From: a virus
Reading direction: 5' to 3' (one strand)
DNA: 64,000 nt
Virus record (IMG/VR): IMGVR_UViG_3300021371_000007
Coordinates: 1 to 64,000 of that record
Shown: piece after piece, positions 21,001 through 47,489 of the stretch
Layout of the letters: every line of letters begins with the position of its first letter
Position numbering within the stretch: the stretch's first letter is position 1
Made by a program: the position numbers and the translations under genes
The notes under the pieces: model-generated
Seen by the model: the letters and a program-made list of their open reading frames with translations, nothing else
Databases searched by the model: none
Told to the model about the DNA's origin: nothing

Positions 21001-24000
21001 AAGCATTAGACTTAATAGAAGAATCTGGAAGAGTGTTCGGAGAACAATCTGAACAAGTACGAAGAGCAAAAGATGCAGCTCAGAATATGGTTTTAGCGCA
21101 TTTAGATTTACATGTAGCGGAAGATCGCACTGTAAGCCTACTTAGTGATACGTCTACTAATTTGAGTGGCATGGCTATGGCTATGGAGACTGTAAAAGCA
21201 GAAATGAATGCTATGCAAGAAGCTATTGAGGCTACAGGGGTTAATGCTGACGAAGCTTCTAGAATAATAGAAGAAGGCATAACACTTAAAATTAGACAAA
21301 TGGCTCAAGACTTTGGGGATGCGTTAAGTGACGTAATTCAGTTTGGTGATAGTCTAGAATCAAGCGCTGTTCAAGGATTAAAAGATGTTTTAGAATATCA
21401 ACAGGCTATAGTAAGAGATGCTGCCCATATTCAAGAACAGCTAGGTAATGGTTATGATTTTATAGCTCGTGCAGAAAAAGCTTTAGCTATTCAAAGAGGT
21501 AATATAGTAGCTAAAGCTTCAGATCAAGAATTAAAAGCTCTTAGTGATTTAGCAGGTGCAGGACAAGAATTTAGTAACGCTGCTATGAAAGCAGCTACTG
21601 ATGCTGAAATAACTAGAAGAGTTATGAATAATATATTTGAGGGGGCAAAACAGCTTACTCAAGCACAAAGAAGTTCAAGATCTGTAGGAAGAGGTCTGGC
21701 TTTTGCTGAGGGAGGTTTTGTACCAGGTACCCCTGAACAACAAAATAAAGACTCAGTGCCTGCATTACTAATGCCTGGAGAGTATGTATTAAATAAAGAA
21801 GCAGTTAAGAATGTTGGAGTAGGAACTTTAGCTGCTTTTAATTCTGGAGCTTTTAAAAAGATGGAAGCTGGGGGTAGTACTACTGGAGGAGTCATTACTC
21901 CTAATAAAATAGCTACTGATGCTTTTGGGGGTACTTTTGGTATAGACCCTGCTACTCAAGCACTATTCAAAAACTTTAGTCAAGATATGACTACTACTTT
22001 AGAGTTTTATGAAGCTAGAGAGCTAGTTGCTCAAGCTAATATAGAACTTTTTGAGACTTATTCAGACCTTAGAGAGGCTGCAGGGGCTAGCAATGATCTT
22101 ATGAATGCTTTTGGTCTTATAGTAGATCATATAGAGCGAGGGGAAATAGGTCTCGCTACTGCAGTATTTGATATAGCACATAATCTAACAGAAGCCACTA
22201 GCGCTACAGAAGCTTATACTCTTTCTCTATCTCAAAATCAAGCACAACAAGCTTTAGCTTCTGCCGGTGTTAATTTACAAAATGAAAATATAGACACTTT
22301 AACAGATAACTTAACTAGTTTCTACACTAGTATAAATACGTCTTCTGTAACTGCTGGAGATTTAGAAGCTGTAATAAGTCAAATGAATATAGCGCTATCT
22401 CAAGGAGTTATATTTGGTAGTGAGTATGGATCAATACTAGATGATGTTACTTCAGATTTTGATAATGCTTTAGCAGCCTTAGATGAATATTCTTCTTTCT
22501 TCTTAGAGCTTCAAGATATTACTTTAGACCCTACAGGAATTATAAGCTCTATAAGATCTGTTCAGTATGCATTTGAAGATGGTATGAATACTATGACAGA
22601 TGCGGTCACAGATGGATTTATAGATACAATAGAAGCTGCTACTGTACAAGTTAGACTTAATAAAAGACTAGAAAAAGAAAGAATAGATTTAATTAAAAAC
22701 TCTTCAGATGAGCAACTTAGAATAATTAGAGATACACAAGATTCAATTGCAGACGCAACTTTTAAAACAGGCGCTATAGCAGAAATAGCTGTTAGAAAAA
22801 TACTAGCAGTATCTTCTGCTTTTGGTACCTTTGAACAAGGATTAGTAGGTTTTTATAATAACTTAGTACAATCATCAGATAACTTTACTAGAACTTTAAG
22901 TGCTTCTGTAGTTAGTAGTATACAAGCAGCAGGTATAGTAATAGATGATGAGTTAGATACTAATTTCTTAGGTACACTAACTAATTTTGCTACACTATCT
23001 AAAAGTGGTTCTTCAAGTGTTCAAGCACTATCTACTGCGTTAGAACAATTAAATTATCAGTTAGAGATTGGAGAGACTATAGACACTGACACTTATAAAG
23101 AGGGAGTGGCCTTTTTACAGTCTTCCTTTATGGAGTTTTTAGATTTATTTAGTGGTATGTCTAATGCCTTTAGAGAAGCAGAATCAAACCTTGATAATTT
23201 TAAAACTACTTTACACTCTTCTTTCACCTCTATAACTGATGAACTAGAAGCTTTACTTAAAACTTTAGTAACTACTTATAGAACTACTTTAGCAGATGTT
23301 AAGACTATGTATCAAGAAGCAGTATCTCAACAAAAAGAAGCAGAAGAGTCATTATATGGAGTATTATTTAGTGCGCAAAATGCCTTTATAGATGCTGGAG
23401 GACATTTAGATGGTCACATATCTAGAATAGATGATATTGTAAAAGGTTTAGATCCTACATATCAGGGATATGCAGGATTAGATCAGTATTTAAAACAACT
23501 TCAAATAGATGTTCAAGCAGGTATCACTTCTTTAGGCGATATAAACACATCTCAATCTTTAGCAGCACTACAAACTAATCTTTCTAATAGTTTAGCAGAC
23601 TTAGCCATACTTCAAACACTTCCTGATTCTGCAGATAAATTTGTAAAAATAAGTAGAAAACTTTCAGAAATAGATGATATTAATAATCAAATATCTGCAG
23701 GAACTCAATCTACAGACGCACTAAAAGAAGCTACGTTAGACTTACTAAAAGTTGAAGAAGAGCTAAACTTTAATAATACTACTGCAGGACTACAACAAGT
23801 AGACTTAACCTTACAAGGTATAAGTCAAGATTTGCTTCAAAATGCTATAGATGCTAGAACTGCATTTAATACTTCTAATCAACTTTTAGATGATTTCACT
23901 ACAGCTTTAAACGCTAATTTTACTCCTAATTTAGTAGCTTCTACTACTGCTGTTAATAGCAGCACATTAAGTCTGTCTTCCTTTATAGCAGAGATGCAAT

Positions 24001-41422: not shown

Positions 41423-42274
41423 TTATACCTTTGCTAGGGCTTCGCCCATTATTGTTTTTATAACTTCAGGGTTTTCTGACATATTAATAGCTTCTTCTAA
41501 ATAAGTATTTAGATCCATTAGTTGTTTATTAAGTAATAATATTTCTTTACCACTATTCAAGTTTTGTATATATTTAGCTTTACCTGCTATAGGTAGATTG
41601 TTTATTAAATTATCTAGACTTTTGTATTCTTTTACTAAGGATTGACTACGTTTTTTACCTATACCATCAATACCCATAATACCATCACTCTTATCGCCCT
41701 CAATAATCCTAGAAAATAGAAACTCTTGAGGAGTAAATTGCCAATCTTCGTGTAAAGAGTCTAGAGTTATCTCTTTTCTAGAGAATAGATTGAATATATT
41801 AACATTATGGTCTAATAGTTGATATAAGTCTCTATCACTAGAGACAATCCATACGTTATCGTATTGCTCTTTTAAATTATTTGCTAAATAAGTTATTAGG
41901 TCATCAGCTTCAATACCTTTGAACTTATAGTGTTCAAAAGGTAATAATTCTGTAGTGTCTTTTAAACAGTTGAAAAAACCTGTGAATCTAATTTTTTCTT
42001 CTTCTGTTCTCTCTACTTTTCTATTTTGTTTATACCCAGGATAAATAGCTTTTCTATAAGAAGAAGCACCTACATCAAAACAGCAAACTATTCTTTTTGC
42101 AGAATAGCTTTTTCCTAAACTACTAATAGTCTTAATATATTCTTGAGAGTAGTCATCAAAATTAGGTCTATGTAGGTATCTGAAAGCTACATTATTAGCA
42201 TCAATCAAAAGAAGGTTATTTTCTTCGTATTTATTTTGTTCTAGTTCGGCTAGATCATTCCAACTTGCACTCAT
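41423..42274 (-). CDS. 5'-3' exonuclease / flap endonuclease (T5 D15-like)
   Basis: LLID.NN, YK.NR, EADD, SSD.D..Q, GD.SD.I.GI.GIG.K. Confidence 0.9.
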   Translation of the reverse strand: MSASWNDLAELEQNKYEENNLLLIDANNVAFRYLHRPNFDDYSQEYIKTISSLGKSYSAKRIVCCFDVGASSYRKAIYPGYKQNRKVERTEEEKIRFTGFFNCLKDTTELLPFEHYKFKGIEADDLITYLANNLKEQYDNVWIVSSDRDLYQLLDHNVNIFNLFSRKEITLDSLHEDWQFTPQEFLFSRIIEGDKSDGIMGIDGIGKKRSQSLVKEYKSLDNLINNLPIAGKAKYIQNLNSGKEILLLNKQLMDLNTYLEEAINMSENPEVIKTIMGEALAKV

Positions 42275-42299
42275 TAAATTTTCTCCATATTTATACTTT

Positions 42300-42328
42300 A
42301 TAATATAATATATTTAATCACTAAGCAA
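42300..42328 (-). promoter_or_regulatory. Sigma70-type promoter for the flap endonuclease operon
   Basis: Minus strand TTGCTT, 17-nt spacer, TATTAT. Confidence 0.65.
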
Positions 42329-42340
42329 GTTAAATCTAAC

Positions 42341-42787
42341 TTAAATAGGTTCTAATTTTACAGCCTCTAATACCCACTCATCAAATAAACCCATTTTAAA
42401 ATATAAGTCATCCACTCTAACAGTTATTTGATTACGCACTTCAACCTGATTAGACCAGCAACAGTATATTTTACTCCTATCCCACTTATATATTAATAGT
42501 GGTTCTTTTTTCATAGTATCGGCTTCTCTTATAGTTTGTTTCCAAAAATCTAATAGTAGCGCAGATTTTTTAGCTGTTAATAAGTTATTCCAATTTATTT
42601 CTTTATGATGTTTAGCCTCTATACAATATGTAAAATTTGGAAGCCAAGGACAATAGACATCACCCTTAAGATACTCTAATGCTCCTGATAACGGTACTCT
42701 TTCAAACTTATTATTAAAGTGATTAGAAAAAAGATCTCTAACTACATACTCAAAACTTCTTCCTTTAGTCTTACTTTTACTACTCAT
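42341..42787 (-). CDS. Holliday junction resolvase-like nuclease (T5 D14-like)
   Basis: SK.KG..FE..V.......F.RVP.SGA ... GD ... IE.K; W.Q..RE. Confidence 0.85.
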   Translation of the reverse strand: MSSKSKTKGRSFEYVVRDLFSNHFNNKFERVPLSGALEYLKGDVYCPWLPNFTYCIEAKHHKEINWNNLLTAKKSALLLDFWKQTIREADTMKKEPLLIYKWDRSKIYCCWSNQVEVRNQITVRVDDLYFKMGLFDEWVLEAVKLEPI

Positions 42788-42843
42788 AATATCTCCTTTG
42801 TATAATACTAATATAAAAAAGAACCATAAGTCTAATATAATAT

Positions 42844-42871
42844 AAAAAAAGAGCCCTTATTGGACTCTTTT
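42844..42871 (-). terminator. Intrinsic terminator closing the small-protein operon
   Basis: Minus strand GAGTCC-aataa-GGGCTC followed by T7. Confidence 0.7.
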
Positions 42872-42881
42872 TACTTTTATA

Positions 42882-43055
42882 CTATAAATACTTACCATCA
42901 ATGCTATGAGTTCTTGAGTTATACCAAGCCCATATAAAACAATTAATCTTACTATAACGACTATACCAAGGGCCTGTGTGTGTTACTCCAAGACACCAGC
43001 CTTGATATCTTAAGTGATAATACCAGTCAAGAATTCTTTTATATCGTAGGATCAT
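42882..43055 (-). CDS. Small aromatic-rich hypothetical protein (57 aa)
   Basis: GGAG SD before ATG 43055; overlaps the upstream stop. Confidence 0.5.
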   Translation of the reverse strand: MILRYKRILDWYYHLRYQGWCLGVTHTGPWYSRYSKINCFIWAWYNSRTHSIDGKYL

Positions 43056-43227
43056 ACTGTTCTCCATTATAGCCTGGATACGTATCTTTATCTTGAACAC
43101 CAGAGTTGCATCCTACAACTACAATTAATAAAAATACTATAGACCATAACGTTACTCTTTTGCTCCACACTATAAACGCATTAAAAGTATTCTCTGCTTC
43201 TATTTGTGCTTGCTCTCTAGGAGTCAT
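43039..43227 (-). CDS. Single-TM small protein resembling aa3-type cytochrome c oxidase subunit IV (62 aa)
   Basis: AAGGA SD before ATG 43227; E.TF..FI.W....T.....L......N pattern; possible lipobox VVGC as alternative reading. Confidence 0.5.
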   Translation of the reverse strand: MTPREQAQIEAENTFNAFIVWSKRVTLWSIVFLLIVVVGCNSGVQDKDTYPGYNGEQYDPTI

Positions 43228-43228
43228 T

Positions 43229-43411
43229 TTATTTCCTTTTGTTACGCATTTCTTGAACCTGTAATATACAACGTTTCGCTTCCTCGTGATATCCCATTCT
43301 TGCGAGCTCCGCTGCCGCTCTGGAGTACCCAATCGTCTGCGTAAACCGATCGAAGGAAGACCACAAACCCGATAAGGGTGAGAATACATAATTGCTTACC
43401 AATGCTGTCAT
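43229..43411 (-). CDS. Small alphaproteobacterial-type helical protein (60 aa)
   Basis: GGAGGG SD; TAATG coupling; GY.RAAAELAR.GY.EEA motif. Confidence 0.65.
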   Translation of the reverse strand: MTALVSNYVFSPLSGLWSSFDRFTQTIGYSRAAAELARMGYHEEAKRCILQVQEMRNKRK

Positions 43412-43644
43412 TATAGTCCCTCCCTATTTTTAATATTAGATCCTGAACGAGCTACAGCATAAATGTCACCCCGTGTAAGACCTATGTCTTCTAAATCATA
43501 ATCTGATAATCTAGATAATTCTTTAATAGTTTGTTTAGCTATACGCTTATCTCTACGGTATTCTACAAGAGTTCGTAAAGATTCAATTAAGTTTTCAATT
43601 ATTCTTGTAGAAAAACTATGTGCTATTAATATGTGTTGTGTCAT
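43411..43644 (-). CDS. DUF1127 (YjiS-like) small protein (77 aa)
   Basis: T..ELSRLSD..L.DIGL.RGDI signature; TAATG coupling at both ends. Confidence 0.9.
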   Translation of the reverse strand: MTQHILIAHSFSTRIIENLIESLRTLVEYRRDKRIAKQTIKELSRLSDYDLEDIGLTRGDIYAVARSGSNIKNREGL

Positions 43645-43805
43645 TATACCCATCCTCTTAAATTAGGATTCATATTTCCGTATATTAATTTTTTTTGTCT
43701 TCTCTCTAAGTCTACTAAGTCAGTAGATTTAGCTAAGTATTCTGTAATTCTTTCTTGTTCTGTTTTCGGTTTTAACTTGTTAAATAGTTTTCTTAAAAGT
43801 TTCAT
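43644..43805 (-). CDS. DUF3563-like small protein (53 aa), absent from the ORF track
   Basis: AAGGAG SD; MKLLRKLFNKLKPKTEQERITEYLAKSTDLVDLERRQKKLIYGNMNPNLRGWV with YLA.STDL.DLERR signature. Confidence 0.75.
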   Translation of the reverse strand: MKLLRKLFNKLKPKTEQERITEYLAKSTDLVDLERRQKKLIYGNMNPNLRGWV

Positions 43806-43827
43806 ATTTTTCTCCTTCTATAATTAT

Positions 43828-43894
43828 AGTATATAATAAAAAGCTTCAAAAAACAACTATAATTATGTCAAACCCGGTATGCACAGTTTGCATA
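43828..43894 (-). promoter_or_regulatory. Promoter with upstream LysR-type operator
   Basis: TTGTTT (43856-43851), 17-nt spacer, TATACT (43833-43828); dyad TATGCA-cagtt-TGCATA (ATGC-N7-GCAT, T-N11-A) at 43878-43894, centred near -65. Confidence 0.65.
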
Positions 43895-43922
43895 GCTTAG
43901 AGGTAAAAAACGCTAAAATAAA

Positions 43923-43948
43923 ATAACCAGAGAATGCTCTCTGGTTAT
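43923..43948 (-). terminator. Hairpin/terminator downstream of tRNA
   Basis: ATAACCAGAGA-atgc-TCTCTGGTTAT 11-bp stem, T-rich tail on minus strand. Confidence 0.65.
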
Positions 43949-43954
43949 AATTAA

Positions 43955-44030
43955 TGGTGCTCCCACACGGACTCGAACCGCGGACCTATTGATTACAAAT
44001 CAATTGCTCTACCAGCTGAGCTATAGGAGC
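43955..44030 (-). tRNA. tRNA-Thr(UGU)
   Basis: GCTCCTATAGCTCAGCTGGTAGAGCAATTGATT-TGT-AATCAATAGGTCCGCGGTTCGAGTCCGTGTGGGAGCACCA; 76-nt cloverleaf with encoded CCA. Confidence 0.95.
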
Positions 44031-44031
44031 T

Positions 44032-45162
44032 TTATAAACTAAATCCTTCGAAGGATTTATCGCTAACATCTTTTTTTGTACCGCCAATAACGTAGCTAGA
44101 AATTTCAGTTTCTTGAGGAGCCACTTGAACTTCTGCCCCGCTTATCCATTTTTGAGTCCAAGGAAGAGGGTTAGCTCTAGGAACACTAAAGTCAGGTTTT
44201 ACACCTGCAGCTACTAGTCTTTTATGAGTTATCCACTCTACATAGTCACTCAGTAATTTAGCATTTAAACCGATCATAGAGCCATCTTTAAATAAGTACT
44301 CTGCCCATTGTTTTTCTTGCTCCATAGCTTCTGTAAACATACTTCTAACAGTACTTTCACACTCTGGAATAATAGTAGCATAATCAGGATCATCTTTAGG
44401 TAATAACTTAATCATTTGCTGTGTAGATGCAAGATGTAAGTTTTCGTCGCGGGCAATTAACTTAATAATCTTAGCATTACCTTCCATCTTCTTTAATTCG
44501 GCAAATGCCCAACTACATGCAAAGCTTACATAAAAACGAACACCCTCTAAAATATTAACACTAGCTATACAAAGATACAATAATTTTTTAAGCTCATACA
44601 TATCAACTATATACTTTTCACCGTTAATTGTGTGGGTTCCTTCACCAAACAATTGATATAATTTGCTTAATTTTAAAAGTTCATCATAGTACTTAGTAAT
44701 GTCAGAGGCGCAGTCTGTTATTTCGGTGACGTTCATCATTTCATCAAATATAACACTAGGATTAGTATAAATATTTCTAATAATATGAGTATAGCTACGA
44801 GAGTGAATAGACTCACTAAAAGTCCAAGTTAAAATCCAATTTTCTAATTCTGGAAGCCCTACTATACCCCCAAAAGCTTCTACAGGGGCTCTTCCTTGAA
44901 CAGAGTCTAGTAAGATTTGACGTTTTAAGTTCGCAGTAAAAATATGCTGCTCGTGTTCTGTTAAACCTCTAAAATCTTTACTATCTTTAGTTACGTCTAT
45001 TTCTTCTGGTCGCCAAAAGAAACCTAACTGTTTGTCTGTAAGCTTGTCAAATTGTTTATACTTTAAAGTATCATACCTCTGAATGTCTACTCCTCCTTCT
45101 GGATCTAAAAACATTAAAGAGGTTAAGTGCTTATTTCTACTATTTTCATTTAATACTGACAT
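44032..45162 (-). CDS. nrdB: Ribonucleotide reductase class Ia beta subunit
   Basis: FFWRPEE, SE.IHSRSY, LEG.RFYVSF, RDE.LH, VAPQE.EISSY; ATG 45162 has an SD. Confidence 0.95.
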   Translation of the reverse strand: MSVLNENSRNKHLTSLMFLDPEGGVDIQRYDTLKYKQFDKLTDKQLGFFWRPEEIDVTKDSKDFRGLTEHEQHIFTANLKRQILLDSVQGRAPVEAFGGIVGLPELENWILTWTFSESIHSRSYTHIIRNIYTNPSVIFDEMMNVTEITDCASDITKYYDELLKLSKLYQLFGEGTHTINGEKYIVDMYELKKLLYLCIASVNILEGVRFYVSFACSWAFAELKKMEGNAKIIKLIARDENLHLASTQQMIKLLPKDDPDYATIIPECESTVRSMFTEAMEQEKQWAEYLFKDGSMIGLNAKLLSDYVEWITHKRLVAAGVKPDFSVPRANPLPWTQKWISGAEVQVAPQETEISSYVIGGTKKDVSDKSFEGFSL

Positions 45163-45173
45163 AATTTTTTCCT

Positions 45174-47489
45174 TTATAATACACAACTTTCACAATAGTC
45201 ATCATACTCTTCATCTGAGTCAAAACTATCTCTGTCTAATTCTTCTTTATCTTCTAAGCTATTTAAGTCTAGTTCGCCTTGACCATCATAGGTATTAAAG
45301 TAATATAATTGTTTACCTCCATACTTATAAAACATTAATAAGTGTTGTAACATTAAACTCATAGGTATTTTTTCTTCTTCAAAATACTGAGGGTTATAGC
45401 TTGTATTAACACTAATACCTTGATCAATATATTTTTGTAGTACAGCCATAATCTTAATATATCCTTCTGGAGAACGTTGGTTCCATAATAAATCATATTT
45501 ATTTTTTAGCTTGTGTATTCCAGGAACTACTTGTTTTAATACTCCATGTTTAGATTGCTTAATACTTACTAAGCTTCTAGGAGGTTCAATACCATTAGTA
45601 CTATTACTTATCTGAGCACTAGTTTCTGCGGGCATAAGAGCCATTAGCGTTGAGTTACGGATACCTGTTGTTTTTAGTTGTTCACGTAGTCCTGACCAAT
45701 CCATACGTTCTATGTGTGGGACTAGCTCGTCTACGTCTTTCTTGTATGTTTGATTAGGGGTAATACCATGTCCATATTTTGTTTCCATAACTCCTGGGCA
45801 TGCACCTTTATCAACGGCTAAATCTGCACTTGCTTTAATTAAGTAATAACTCCATGCTTCTGCCCACTCATCTATAAGAGATAATCCTTGCTCATCTATA
45901 TCTTGATAATTAAGATTATTTTTAGCTAACCAATACGCAAAATTAATAATACCAACGCCTAAAGGTCTTCTTTTTTCTGTAGATAACTGTGCTGCACGTA
46001 AAGGGTAATCTTGATAGCTTAGTAGGGCGTCTAAACCTCTTATGGCTAAAGCCCCTACTCTCTCAAAGTCTTCTTTACATTTTACATTACCCCAATTAAC
46101 AGCACTTAAAGTACATAGGCTTATCTCTCCTTCTTCATCGAATATATCTTTTAAAGGCTTGGTAGGTAAGTCTATCTCTGCACATAAATTAGACTGATGA
46201 ATAGGAGCTACTTTCTCATCAAAACTAGAATGTGTATTAGCATGGTCCACATTTTGTAAGTATATACGTCCTGTATTTTTACGTTCTTCCATAAATGAAG
46301 AAAATAAGTCAATAGCACTTACAGTTTTCTTTCGTAGCTTTGTATTTTTTTCTGCTCCCTCATACATTATTTTAAAAGTATCAGGATCGTTAAAGAATGA
46401 GTCATACAACCCTGGAACATCGCTAGGAGAAAATAGAGTTATATCTCCTCCAGTAATTAAGCGTTCGTAAAACAACTTATTAAATTGTACGCCATAATCC
46501 ATATGTCTTACACGATTTTCTTCTGTGCCTTTGTTATTTTTTAGTACGAGTAAGTCTTCAACCTCTAAGTGCCAAATTGGGTAATATAAAGTTGCTGCTC
46601 CATTTCTAACACCGCCTTGAGAACAGCTCCTTGTAGCTGCTTGAAACATCTTATAAAAAGGAATTACCCCTGTGTGATAGGCATCTCCTTTACGTATGGG
46701 AGAACCGATAGACCTAATTCTTCCTGCTCCAATACCAATACCTGCTTTTTGACTGACGTACTTAACAATACTAGAACTAGTAGCATTAATACTGTCAAGA
46801 CTATCATCAGCTTCAATAAGTACACAAGAAGAGAATTGTCGTTGTGGAGTACGCAGACCCGCCATGATAGGAGTAGGCAAGCTAAGCTCATGTAAACTAA
46901 TAGCATCATAGTAATCTTTTACCCATTTTAATCTAGTTTCTTTAGGATAGTTAGCAAATAGTGTCATAGATATTAACATATAGGCTACCTGAGGAGTTTC
47001 ATATATAATCTCTTCAACTCTATTTTGTACTAAATATTTACCTCTAAATTGCTCCATAGCAACATAAGTTAATTTATCATCTCGTACATGTTTGATATAT
47101 TTATTAATAGTTGAAAATTCTTTTTTAGAGTAAGTTTCTATAAGCTCACGATCATAAAACCCTAATTTTACATTTTTTTCTACTATAGAATACAGATCAG
47201 GAGGATCAAACTGCCCATATACCTCTTTACGAAGGTTGTAGTTTATTAGTCTTCCTGCAACCCATTGATAATTAGGAGTTTGCTCTGAGATTAAGTCTGC
47301 GGCACTTTTTATAAGTGTTTCTTGTACGTCTGATGTTTTAATACCATCAAAAAACTGTATTTTACTTTTAATCTCTACCTCACTAGGGCTTACTCCTGCT
47401 ATACCCTCACAAGCTAAAAAAACTACCTTATGTAGTTTTTCAATGTTTAGATCTTCTTTTTTACCTGTTCTTTTTATAACTTGTATCAT
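45174..47489 (-). CDS. nrdA: Ribonucleotide reductase class Ia alpha subunit with ATP cone
   Basis: V.KR.G ATP cone, PTPIM, QFSSC, SNLCAEI, LYY, C-terminal CESC. Confidence 0.97.
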   Translation of the reverse strand: MIQVIKRTGKKEDLNIEKLHKVVFLACEGIAGVSPSEVEIKSKIQFFDGIKTSDVQETLIKSAADLISEQTPNYQWVAGRLINYNLRKEVYGQFDPPDLYSIVEKNVKLGFYDRELIETYSKKEFSTINKYIKHVRDDKLTYVAMEQFRGKYLVQNRVEEIIYETPQVAYMLISMTLFANYPKETRLKWVKDYYDAISLHELSLPTPIMAGLRTPQRQFSSCVLIEADDSLDSINATSSSIVKYVSQKAGIGIGAGRIRSIGSPIRKGDAYHTGVIPFYKMFQAATRSCSQGGVRNGAATLYYPIWHLEVEDLLVLKNNKGTEENRVRHMDYGVQFNKLFYERLITGGDITLFSPSDVPGLYDSFFNDPDTFKIMYEGAEKNTKLRKKTVSAIDLFSSFMEERKNTGRIYLQNVDHANTHSSFDEKVAPIHQSNLCAEIDLPTKPLKDIFDEEGEISLCTLSAVNWGNVKCKEDFERVGALAIRGLDALLSYQDYPLRAAQLSTEKRRPLGVGIINFAYWLAKNNLNYQDIDEQGLSLIDEWAEAWSYYLIKASADLAVDKGACPGVMETKYGHGITPNQTYKKDVDELVPHIERMDWSGLREQLKTTGIRNSTLMALMPAETSAQISNSTNGIEPPRSLVSIKQSKHGVLKQVVPGIHKLKNKYDLLWNQRSPEGYIKIMAVLQKYIDQGISVNTSYNPQYFEEEKIPMSLMLQHLLMFYKYGGKQLYYFNTYDGQGELDLNSLEDKEELDRDSFDSDEEYDDYCESCVL

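Follow-up and report, generated by a model that had tools for sequence, protein, structure and literature searches.

The locus described here lies on a 64,000-nucleotide (nt) stretch of DNA, hereafter the window, which is part of the 81.9-kb IMG/VR virus record IMGVR_UViG_3300021371_000007. The record belongs to a marine, N4-like phage of about 30% GC with a lytic-type genome; the window encodes an open reading frame (ORF) of 4420 amino acids (aa), which we take to be a hallmark of N4-like phages. On the minus strand, in a region of approximately 25-35% GC, a cassette of five small genes (p1 to p5) follows a 117-nt leader, and this leader carries an inverted repeat, ATGC-N7-GCAT, that matches the operator of the alphaproteobacterial LysR-type regulator LsrB/VtlR. 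Taking the evidence together, we consider it probable that the cassette is an insulated five-gene small-protein phage module that has come, in this lineage, under the control of a host LsrB-type promoter.

The minus-strand order is NrdB (44032..45186), tRNA-Thr(TGT) (43955..44030; called by ARAGORN, Rfam tRNA 71.6 bits), an intrinsic terminator (43923..43948), the leader, p1 to p5, a second intrinsic terminator (42846..42872) and a PDDEXK nuclease gene. NrdB belongs to the upstream unit, of which the tRNA is the end gene, and the terminator behind it, an 11-pair stem with a 4-nt loop and a T-run, would shield the cassette from upstream transcription. The first-pass annotation, made from the letters of the window, had given the cassette a terminator of its own; the terminator scan returned that stem-loop (42872-42846) and added the second one upstream (43948-43923), so that two intrinsic terminators, against 0.4 expected, flank the cassette on both sides. 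In an Rfam search of the cassette only the tRNA scored above threshold.

The first gene, p1 (43644..43805), encodes a 53-aa DUF3563 protein with the C-terminus NPNLRGWV, and p2 (43411..43644) a 77-aa DUF1127 protein. They are followed by p3 (43229..43411; 60 aa, a predicted TPR-like helix pair), p4 (43039..43227; a 62-aa membrane protein with a CoxIV-like N-terminal half) and p5 (42882..43055; 57 aa, Trp/Tyr-rich, of no family and the constant partner of p4). At the p1/p2 and p2/p3 junctions the sequence is TAATG, with one base shared, p3 and p4 are separated by 1 nt, p4 and p5 overlap by 17 nt, and a Shine-Dalgarno-like purine run precedes each of the five starts. The same cassette was found in the same place in five IMG/VR contigs, with protein identities of 79-100%, and comparison with two of these relatives (L015 and L017) gave ratios of nonsynonymous to synonymous substitution (dN/dS) of 0.07-0.26 (0.08 for p1 and 0.19 for p2) at a dS of 0.32-0.58, values similar to those of the flanking genes. 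Since the cassette is conserved in relatives at such dN/dS values, the five ORFs are real genes under purifying selection; the coupled set of five minus-strand ORFs of 53-77 aa proposed in the first pass is thus borne out by coordinates, junctions and dN/dS.

Contigs carrying the cassette were also present in the RNA libraries of three studies, where they give no starts, ends or strand and where DNA carry-over is possible. Two sets from one study (X1 and X2) yielded one contig each, covering 42154-43988 and 42085-43983, a further set (X4) yielded two pieces on the cassette, and another (X5) covers p3, p2 and p1 with three short contigs, its uncovered flanks not being evidence.

The dyad ATGC-N7-GCAT occupies 43879..43893 on the minus strand, 88 nt 5' of the p1 ATG, and in its extended form, TATGCA-N5-TGCATA (43878-43894), it is the sole perfect copy in the window. 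Downstream of it lie a weak -35-like hexamer, TTGTTT (43851..43856, three of six consensus positions, offset 23-28 past the box), and, after a 17-nt spacer, the -10-like hexamer TATACT (43828..43833, offset 46-51), from which a start near 43821 is predicted. Relative to this predicted start the box would span -72 to -58 with its centre at about -65. The genes, their conservation, the identity of the motif and its spacing to the predicted hexamers are read directly from the DNA.

The LsrB/VtlR box has been published as GCAT-N3-TG-N3-T (PMC7486931, PMC8844928). To place the phage dyad beside bacterial promoters, we used a sample of 22 bacterial DUF3563 loci, leaving out two weak matches inside long frames (L078 and L124). 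In seven of the 22 (L033, L035, L036, L037, L072, L073 and L075), all of them from a high-GC alphaproteobacterial group, a perfect ATGC-N7-GCAT with conserved arms and differing spacers precedes the ATG by 99-114 nt; dyads with one mismatch were seen at -103 (L034) and -121 (L076), and among the 22 loci the dyad was absent from the other sampled DUF3563 types and from two AT-rich genomes. Past the dyad, five of the seven read GGCTG and L075 reads TGCTG, which yields GCAT-N3-TG; L073 has neither. The pattern ATGC-N7-GCATGGCTG occurs 12 times in five high-GC genomes and its reversed form not once; one copy precedes the small RNA ar14 (100.5 bits).

The dyad is also found at DUF1127 and AbcR1 promoters. 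Among 30 DUF1127 loci of the same genomes, four carry the dyad fused to the full published box, the right arm of the dyad being the GCAT of the box, and another four of the 30 carry the box alone. In front of the first of the ar15 (AbcR1) copies, which adjoins a trxB-lsrB locus, the dyad spans -72 to -58 and the published box -61 to -49. At this promoter, PabcR1, an LsrB motif has been reported at the same place, its removal cut promoter activity more than 22-fold, and LsrB binding was seen by gel shift (PMC8844928); LsrB is described as redox-responsive (PMC11975290). Judged from these alignments, the full LsrB/VtlR operator appears to be the dyad ATGC-N7-GCAT, of which the published half-box would be the right side only.

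This full dyad, as it stands at the PabcR1, DUF1127 and DUF3563 promoters, is present in the phage leader. When the window was scored with a matrix derived from 12 non-redundant bacterial boxes, the phage site came first among 127,944 positions, at 18.8 against 13.3 for the best unrelated site. A -10-like hexamer was found at offset 46-47 in 11 of 17 bacterial box promoters (by a script criterion) and TATACT of the phage stands at 46; the distances from the box to the predicted -35 and -10 hexamers match those of PabcR1. In both sequence and predicted position, the dyad noticed in the first pass matches the LsrB/VtlR operator of bacterial DUF3563, DUF1127, ar14 and AbcR1 promoters. For bacteria, the membership of DUF3563 in this regulon, as judged from the LsrB/VtlR box, looks undescribed, and DUF3563 was mentioned nowhere in the literature searched.

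Several observations weigh against an LsrB-type promoter; they concern the promoter itself, its distribution in phages and the hosts that could supply the regulator. As to the promoter, the phage sequence, GCAT-ACC-GG-GTT-T, departs from the strict published box at one base, and the five exact matches of that box in the window all lie away from the cassette. Generic perfect 6-bp dyads with spacers of 3-9 nt occur 307 times in the window and in 29% of 117-nt windows. The hexamers TTGTTT and TATACT and their 17-nt spacing are present as the first pass had reported; they match eight of 12 consensus positions, were not listed by the promoter scan, and sigma-70-like matches in this AT-rich region stand at chance level (9 against 7.8 expected). 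Other -10-like hexamers occur in the leader at offsets 41, 48, 51 and 54, and the placing of the dyad about 65 nt upstream of the start, the geometry of which fits TATACT, relies on a start site that is a prediction only. Moreover, operator prediction in phages has been called unreliable, predicted boxes needing experimental proof (PMC10976474).

The generic dyad counts, the chance-level sigma-70-like matches and the missed strict box would fit a chance palindrome in front of an ordinary accessory block, transcribed either by an RNA polymerase of the phage or from a host promoter that is not regulated. The cassette lies amid replication genes, and N4-like phages read such genes with their own polymerase. 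We initially took the dyad for chance, on the generic dyad counts and the missed strict box, and gave this up because the same dyad was found at bacterial DUF3563 loci. Exact ATGC-N7-GCAT is itself rare, with four copies in 64 kb against 0.5 expected, and the matrix puts the phage site at the top of all window positions. The site precedes a member of a gene family that is boxed alike in bacteria, with the same spacing to the -10-like hexamer. The 117-nt leader differs from that of L015 at six sites (5.1%), whereas p1, NrdB and p2 differ by 18.5-28.6% at their third codon positions; the leader is thus 3.6-5.6 times better conserved, in an alignment of close relatives that are too alike to reveal motif-specific conservation. 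Chance is in our view unlikely. The three other copies of ATGC-N7-GCAT (2611-2625, 2968-2982 and 23851-23865) are inside long plus-strand ORFs, all end in CTGCAT and do not exceed a score of 12.6 when the matrix of bacterial boxes is applied. When 14-mers of the leader were sought across the window, two mismatches being allowed, only AT-rich noise came back.

A real operator could also serve a different binder, be it another host regulator or a phage DNA-binding protein, or the repeat could be a hairpin promoter of the type read by the N4 virion polymerase, N4 early promoters being hairpins. In favour of such a binder, the half-site past GCAT differs from the bacterial GGCTG. The arms, on the other side, are identical to those of LsrB-dependent promoters, and no LysR helix-turn-helix (HTH) was found in the 81.9-kb phage record. 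A 5-nt loop and a position among middle genes do not fit N4 early promoters, and the window has no second copy of the element. We therefore regard a different reader of this site as decidedly improbable. The first-pass statement that the window lacks a LysR gene thus holds across the whole record and, in the absence of such an HTH, a host regulator would be needed.

As to distribution, of 129 viral DUF3563 relatives 80 were retrieved, and 77 of these proved suitable for evaluation. The dyad was present in five of the 77, all close relatives, at -88, and in none of the 72 more distant loci, which show only scattered one-mismatch matches at other positions; nor did any of three rhizobiophage DUF1127 genes carry it. 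T4-like relatives carry the genes directly behind hsp20, without a leader of their own. In Atu_ph07 a GCAT-N3-TG half box lies at -101 of the DUF1127 gene. The Sinorhizobium phages Phosso and phiM12 have in common a AGCTATGT-N7 element upstream of DUF1127 (L152:~560-600 and L151:~690-720), which in Phosso is a perfect 8-bp dyad and resembles AGCTATGC-N7, the left half of the window's site, with T/A replacing C/G.

The first pass had seen in the cassette a host regulon captured together with its operator, and in this form the idea does not stand. DUF1127 was found within 1.5 kb of none of the 22 bacterial DUF3563 loci by a hidden Markov model (HMM) check that recovered four of four held-out controls and replaced a regular expression recovering 11 of 30 positive controls. 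The p3 family matched a single sequence in a scan of 185,579 species by N-terminal patterns, on a phage-like contig, the relatives of p4 are all nameless and metagenomic, and the strict box is one base off. Because DUF3563 and DUF1127 stand apart in the bacterial loci sampled and the distant phage loci lack the box, the cassette is not a copied host operon. The search of homologous promoters for ATGC-N7-GCAT that the first pass had proposed was thus positive in bacteria, at the DUF3563 and DUF1127 loci counted above, and negative at the distant phage loci.

It could still be argued that a host DUF3563 gene was captured long ago along with its promoter and that the box, no longer working, is a decaying remnant of that event. 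The closest relatives of p1 (58-66% identity) are phage genes without the box, and p1 shares only 29-56% identity with bacterial DUF3563 proteins, in alignments that cover 18-54 residues. Decay is hard to reconcile with the sequences of the lineage, in which both arms are perfect in six of six (the window and the five contigs), the spacer varying in one, and with the low divergence of the leader given above; we consider a relic very improbable, the least probable of the explanations considered. A module under an LsrB-type promoter remains the reading that we prefer.

As to hosts, LsrB has been called unique to Rhizobiales in a 2025 paper that sampled few species (PMC11975290). DUF1127 was lacking in five small AT-rich alphaproteobacterial genomes, and in two 1.4-Mb genomes (loci of 31-34% GC) DUF3563 stands in a two-gene operon without the box. 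The Rhodobacteraceae host implied in the first pass finds no support, the phage being of about 30% GC. Nevertheless, a plausible AT-rich host type exists, as judged from genome G503, an alphaproteobacterial genome of 1.2 Mb whose three loci read here are of about 30% GC. Its LsrB candidate (L131:1501-2385) is a reciprocal best hit with 48% identity, scores 299 bits against 113 for the next protein, and has in the N-terminal DNA-binding region the segment LSQSAISRQ, identical to that of high-GC LsrB. The same genome has one intergenic full box, ATGC-N7-GCATGGCTG (L141/L234:1501-1520), and a basic ORF of 48 aa, with a Shine-Dalgarno site and a terminator, lies 110 nt downstream of it. With both an LsrB and a box in this genome, LsrB-type control of small-protein genes would not be confined to high-GC rhizobia. 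Across three AT-rich genomes ATGC-N7-GCAT occurs 17-20 times against 1-4 for the reversed pattern, a control that differs in dinucleotide content, and this excess was not used as evidence; nine of 15 inspected sites in AT-rich genomes lie inside ORFs of at least 90 aa.

The family labels of the first two genes, DUF3563 and DUF1127, were upheld by profile search: p1 scores 32.8 bits with PF12086 (Pfam gathering cut-off 26.9) and p2 44.6 bits with PF06568 (cut-off 23.3). A single superfamily of DUF3563 and DUF1127 was considered and dropped, the hhalign probability being 0.2%. The relatives of p2 fall into 20 clusters, with PF06568 in all, and of the five proteins p2 alone matches PHROGs, in a family of unknown function; against isolated phages p1 and p4 gave no match. 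N(P)NL[RK]GW[VI] is the C-terminus of the phage DUF3563 proteins and, in this clade, of most phage DUF1127 proteins (43644-43670 for p1; relatives in A3 and L154-L233); it is without counterpart in the sampled bacterial DUF3563 proteins, and p2 of the window ends in REGL.

Small bacterial DUF1127 proteins interact with the sensor kinase PhoR and curb the uptake of phosphate, and RNA is bound by one of them, CcaF1 (PMC12501420). With these proteins (the Agrobacterium tumefaciens SDPs, Escherichia coli YjiS and Rhodobacter sphaeroides CcaF1) p2 has in common a DUF1127 domain above threshold. It differs from them in its greater length (77 aa), in a conserved N-terminal MTQxIL..HS.ST and in p3 always adjoining; most of its relatives, unlike the bacterial proteins, end in RGW[LV]. 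A literature search joining DUF1127 with phage, judged by title or abstract, returned nothing on phage DUF1127 genes.

No Pfam family matched p3 or p5. The core of p3, GY[SA]RAAxELARxGxxEEAK, would form one TPR-like helix pair; its long matches are TPR/HEAT repeat proteins and its nearest atlas clusters are labelled viral. The family comprises 179 clusters at 90% identity, none of them functionally named, and 235 representatives at 50% identity. The species scan mentioned above, which took one genome per species and used N-terminal patterns only, had its one match on a 2-kb contig binned into a metagenome-assembled genome. As far as sequences sampled to date indicate, p3, p4 and p5 belong to families found so far on viral contigs only. 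Across phages p3 recurs beside DUF1127 or DUF3563 genes: in T4-like contigs p2 and p3 adjoin each other immediately behind hsp20, with which they overlap, in the Methylophilales phage Melnitz a p3-like gene and then DUF1127 lie downstream of NrdB, and in two further contigs (L019 and L173) DUF3563 adjoins a p3-like gene. A prediction of a p2-p3 complex, run without controls, scored 0.00.

Other features of p3 and its neighbourhood were noted along the way. Its GC content (43229-43411) rises to 47% in 150-nt windows, against 25-33% in the surroundings, and, at 69-76% identity between N4-like and T4-like phages, its product is better conserved than the other four proteins. In an 87-aa metagenomic ORF (P0250) a DUF1127 C-terminus runs into the p3 N-terminus and then out of frame, which is weak as evidence of a fusion, read-through or an assembly error being possible. 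A family of 52-63 aa with the core F.+.EY.N[DE] precedes DUF3563 in two AT-rich bacterial genomes (L122:1322-1665 and L123:1313-1668) and also stands before DUF3563 or p3-like phage genes (L173:1316-1788, L019:3611-4156 and L026:2770-3356), Melnitz gp44 included.

The CoxIV-like character assigned to p4 in the first pass holds for part of the protein. Its score with COX4_pro_2 (PF07835), 19.3 bits, is below the Pfam gathering cut-off of 22, so that it does not qualify as a member; 19 of 22 proteins of its family match the profile only at E ≤ 0.1. In hhalign the family aligned with 30 alphaproteobacterial CoxIV sequences at a probability of 91.5% and a score of 33.8, above the controls (21.8 for reversed sequences and 16.7 for the best of 20 column shuffles), the resemblance lying in the N-terminal half. 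Like subunit IV of the bacterial aa3 cytochrome c oxidase, p4 has a juxtamembrane motif and a single transmembrane (TM) helix. The sampled CoxIV sequences end with the helix, whereas p4 continues with an invariant lipobox-like Cys in VVGC and a conserved 22-aa tail containing YNGEQY, and so departs from a protein that ends just after its TM helix in an oxidase-bearing cell. A profile search of solved structures with p4 returned no oxidase subunit, and its 72 clusters are all metagenomic or viral, none of them named. The genes p4 and p5 travel as a pair; in the protein atlas p5 had no usable match.

What stands between p3 and p4 differs among relatives. In a close N4-like relative (L004:4416-5235; also in L005) this slot is occupied by a gene for a secreted cupredoxin/pseudoazurin-like protein, so labelled from sequence motifs read by eye with no profile behind the label, and one for a 133-aa membrane protein; this pseudoazurin-like gene is also present in a T4-like contig, behind DUF3563 (L023:4090-4521). 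In three T4-like relatives (L012:4400-4621, L007:2244-2465 and L009:4400-4624) a 73-aa homologue of ATP synthase subunit c (PF00137, 43.5 bits against a cut-off of 24) comes directly after p3, with more small membrane proteins between it and the p4-p5 pair.

Taking into consideration the operator match and the layout of the cassette, we infer LsrB binding, activation, the type of host and the functions of the proteins as follows. The element at -72 to -58 would be an LsrB/VtlR-type operator, bound by the redox-responsive LysR-type regulator of an alphaproteobacterium, and host sigma-70 RNA polymerase would transcribe the cassette from an activator-dependent promoter. With no phage-encoded regulator, expression of the cassette would follow the state of the host LsrB. 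The two families that in high-GC alphaproteobacteria occupy separate loci behind the same box would thereby be united by the phage under one promoter, p1 and p2 being phage versions of DUF3563 and DUF1127 joined in one transcript. The TPR-like mini-protein p3 is probably a partner of the DUF1127/DUF3563 proteins, and p4 and p5 may form a membrane pair. Since bacterial DUF1127 proteins bind PhoR and one of them binds RNA, the phage copies could add to or override the PhoR and RNA controls of the host.

A more far-reaching proposal, which we put forward tentatively and consider doubtful, is that the cassette is a condensed mobile LsrB small-protein regulon. The lytic phage would sense the redox and growth state through the host LsrB and flood the cell with tailed variants of DUF3563 and DUF1127, which have a GW[VI] C-terminus in common, along with their TPR-like partner, taking over the PhoR and RNA-turnover controls, while p4/p5, the pseudoazurin and the ATP synthase subunit c would act on the respiratory membrane. 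If so, DUF3563 would be a core LsrB target, and LsrB control would reach streamlined marine alphaproteobacteria, well beyond Rhizobiales. For bacteria, the leads that arise are the DUF3563 genes with an LsrB/VtlR box, the full operator dyad, and the LsrB ortholog and box in an AT-rich 1.2-Mb genome.

Only for a handful of host regulators has control of phage accessory genes been documented, an example being PhoB in cyanophages; there, Pho boxes precede pstS in P-SSM2 as well as genes of S-PM2d, and control is exerted by the host PhoR/PhoB system (PMC10976474). A literature search joining LsrB/VtlR with phage gave, among the matches listed, only an unrelated quorum-sensing LsrB. As in the cyanophage case, a lytic marine phage would here carry a host transcription-factor site before accessory genes, with the state of the host setting their expression. 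The cyanophage case is backed by gel-shift and expression data, the present one by sequence comparison; the two also differ in the regulator (a response regulator there, a LysR-type activator here) and in the genes, small regulatory proteins taking the place of transport and enzyme genes. If true, a redox-responsive LysR-type regulator over a phage small-protein operon would be a new way for a lytic phage to sense and rewire its host. The closest parallels are the LsrB/VtlR promoters of Rhizobiales (PabcR1, the atu1667-type DUF1127 genes and vrsA), in which the dyad stands at -72 to -58, as is predicted for the phage, its right arm opens the published box, the hexamers that follow are a -35 that is weak and a -10 whose offset agrees with that of TATACT, and the same small-protein families are driven. 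Unlike these, the predicted phage site lies in a lytic-type genome of about 30% GC and has GG for the TG of the box, and its one promoter would serve five genes, three of them from the families known so far only from viral contigs.

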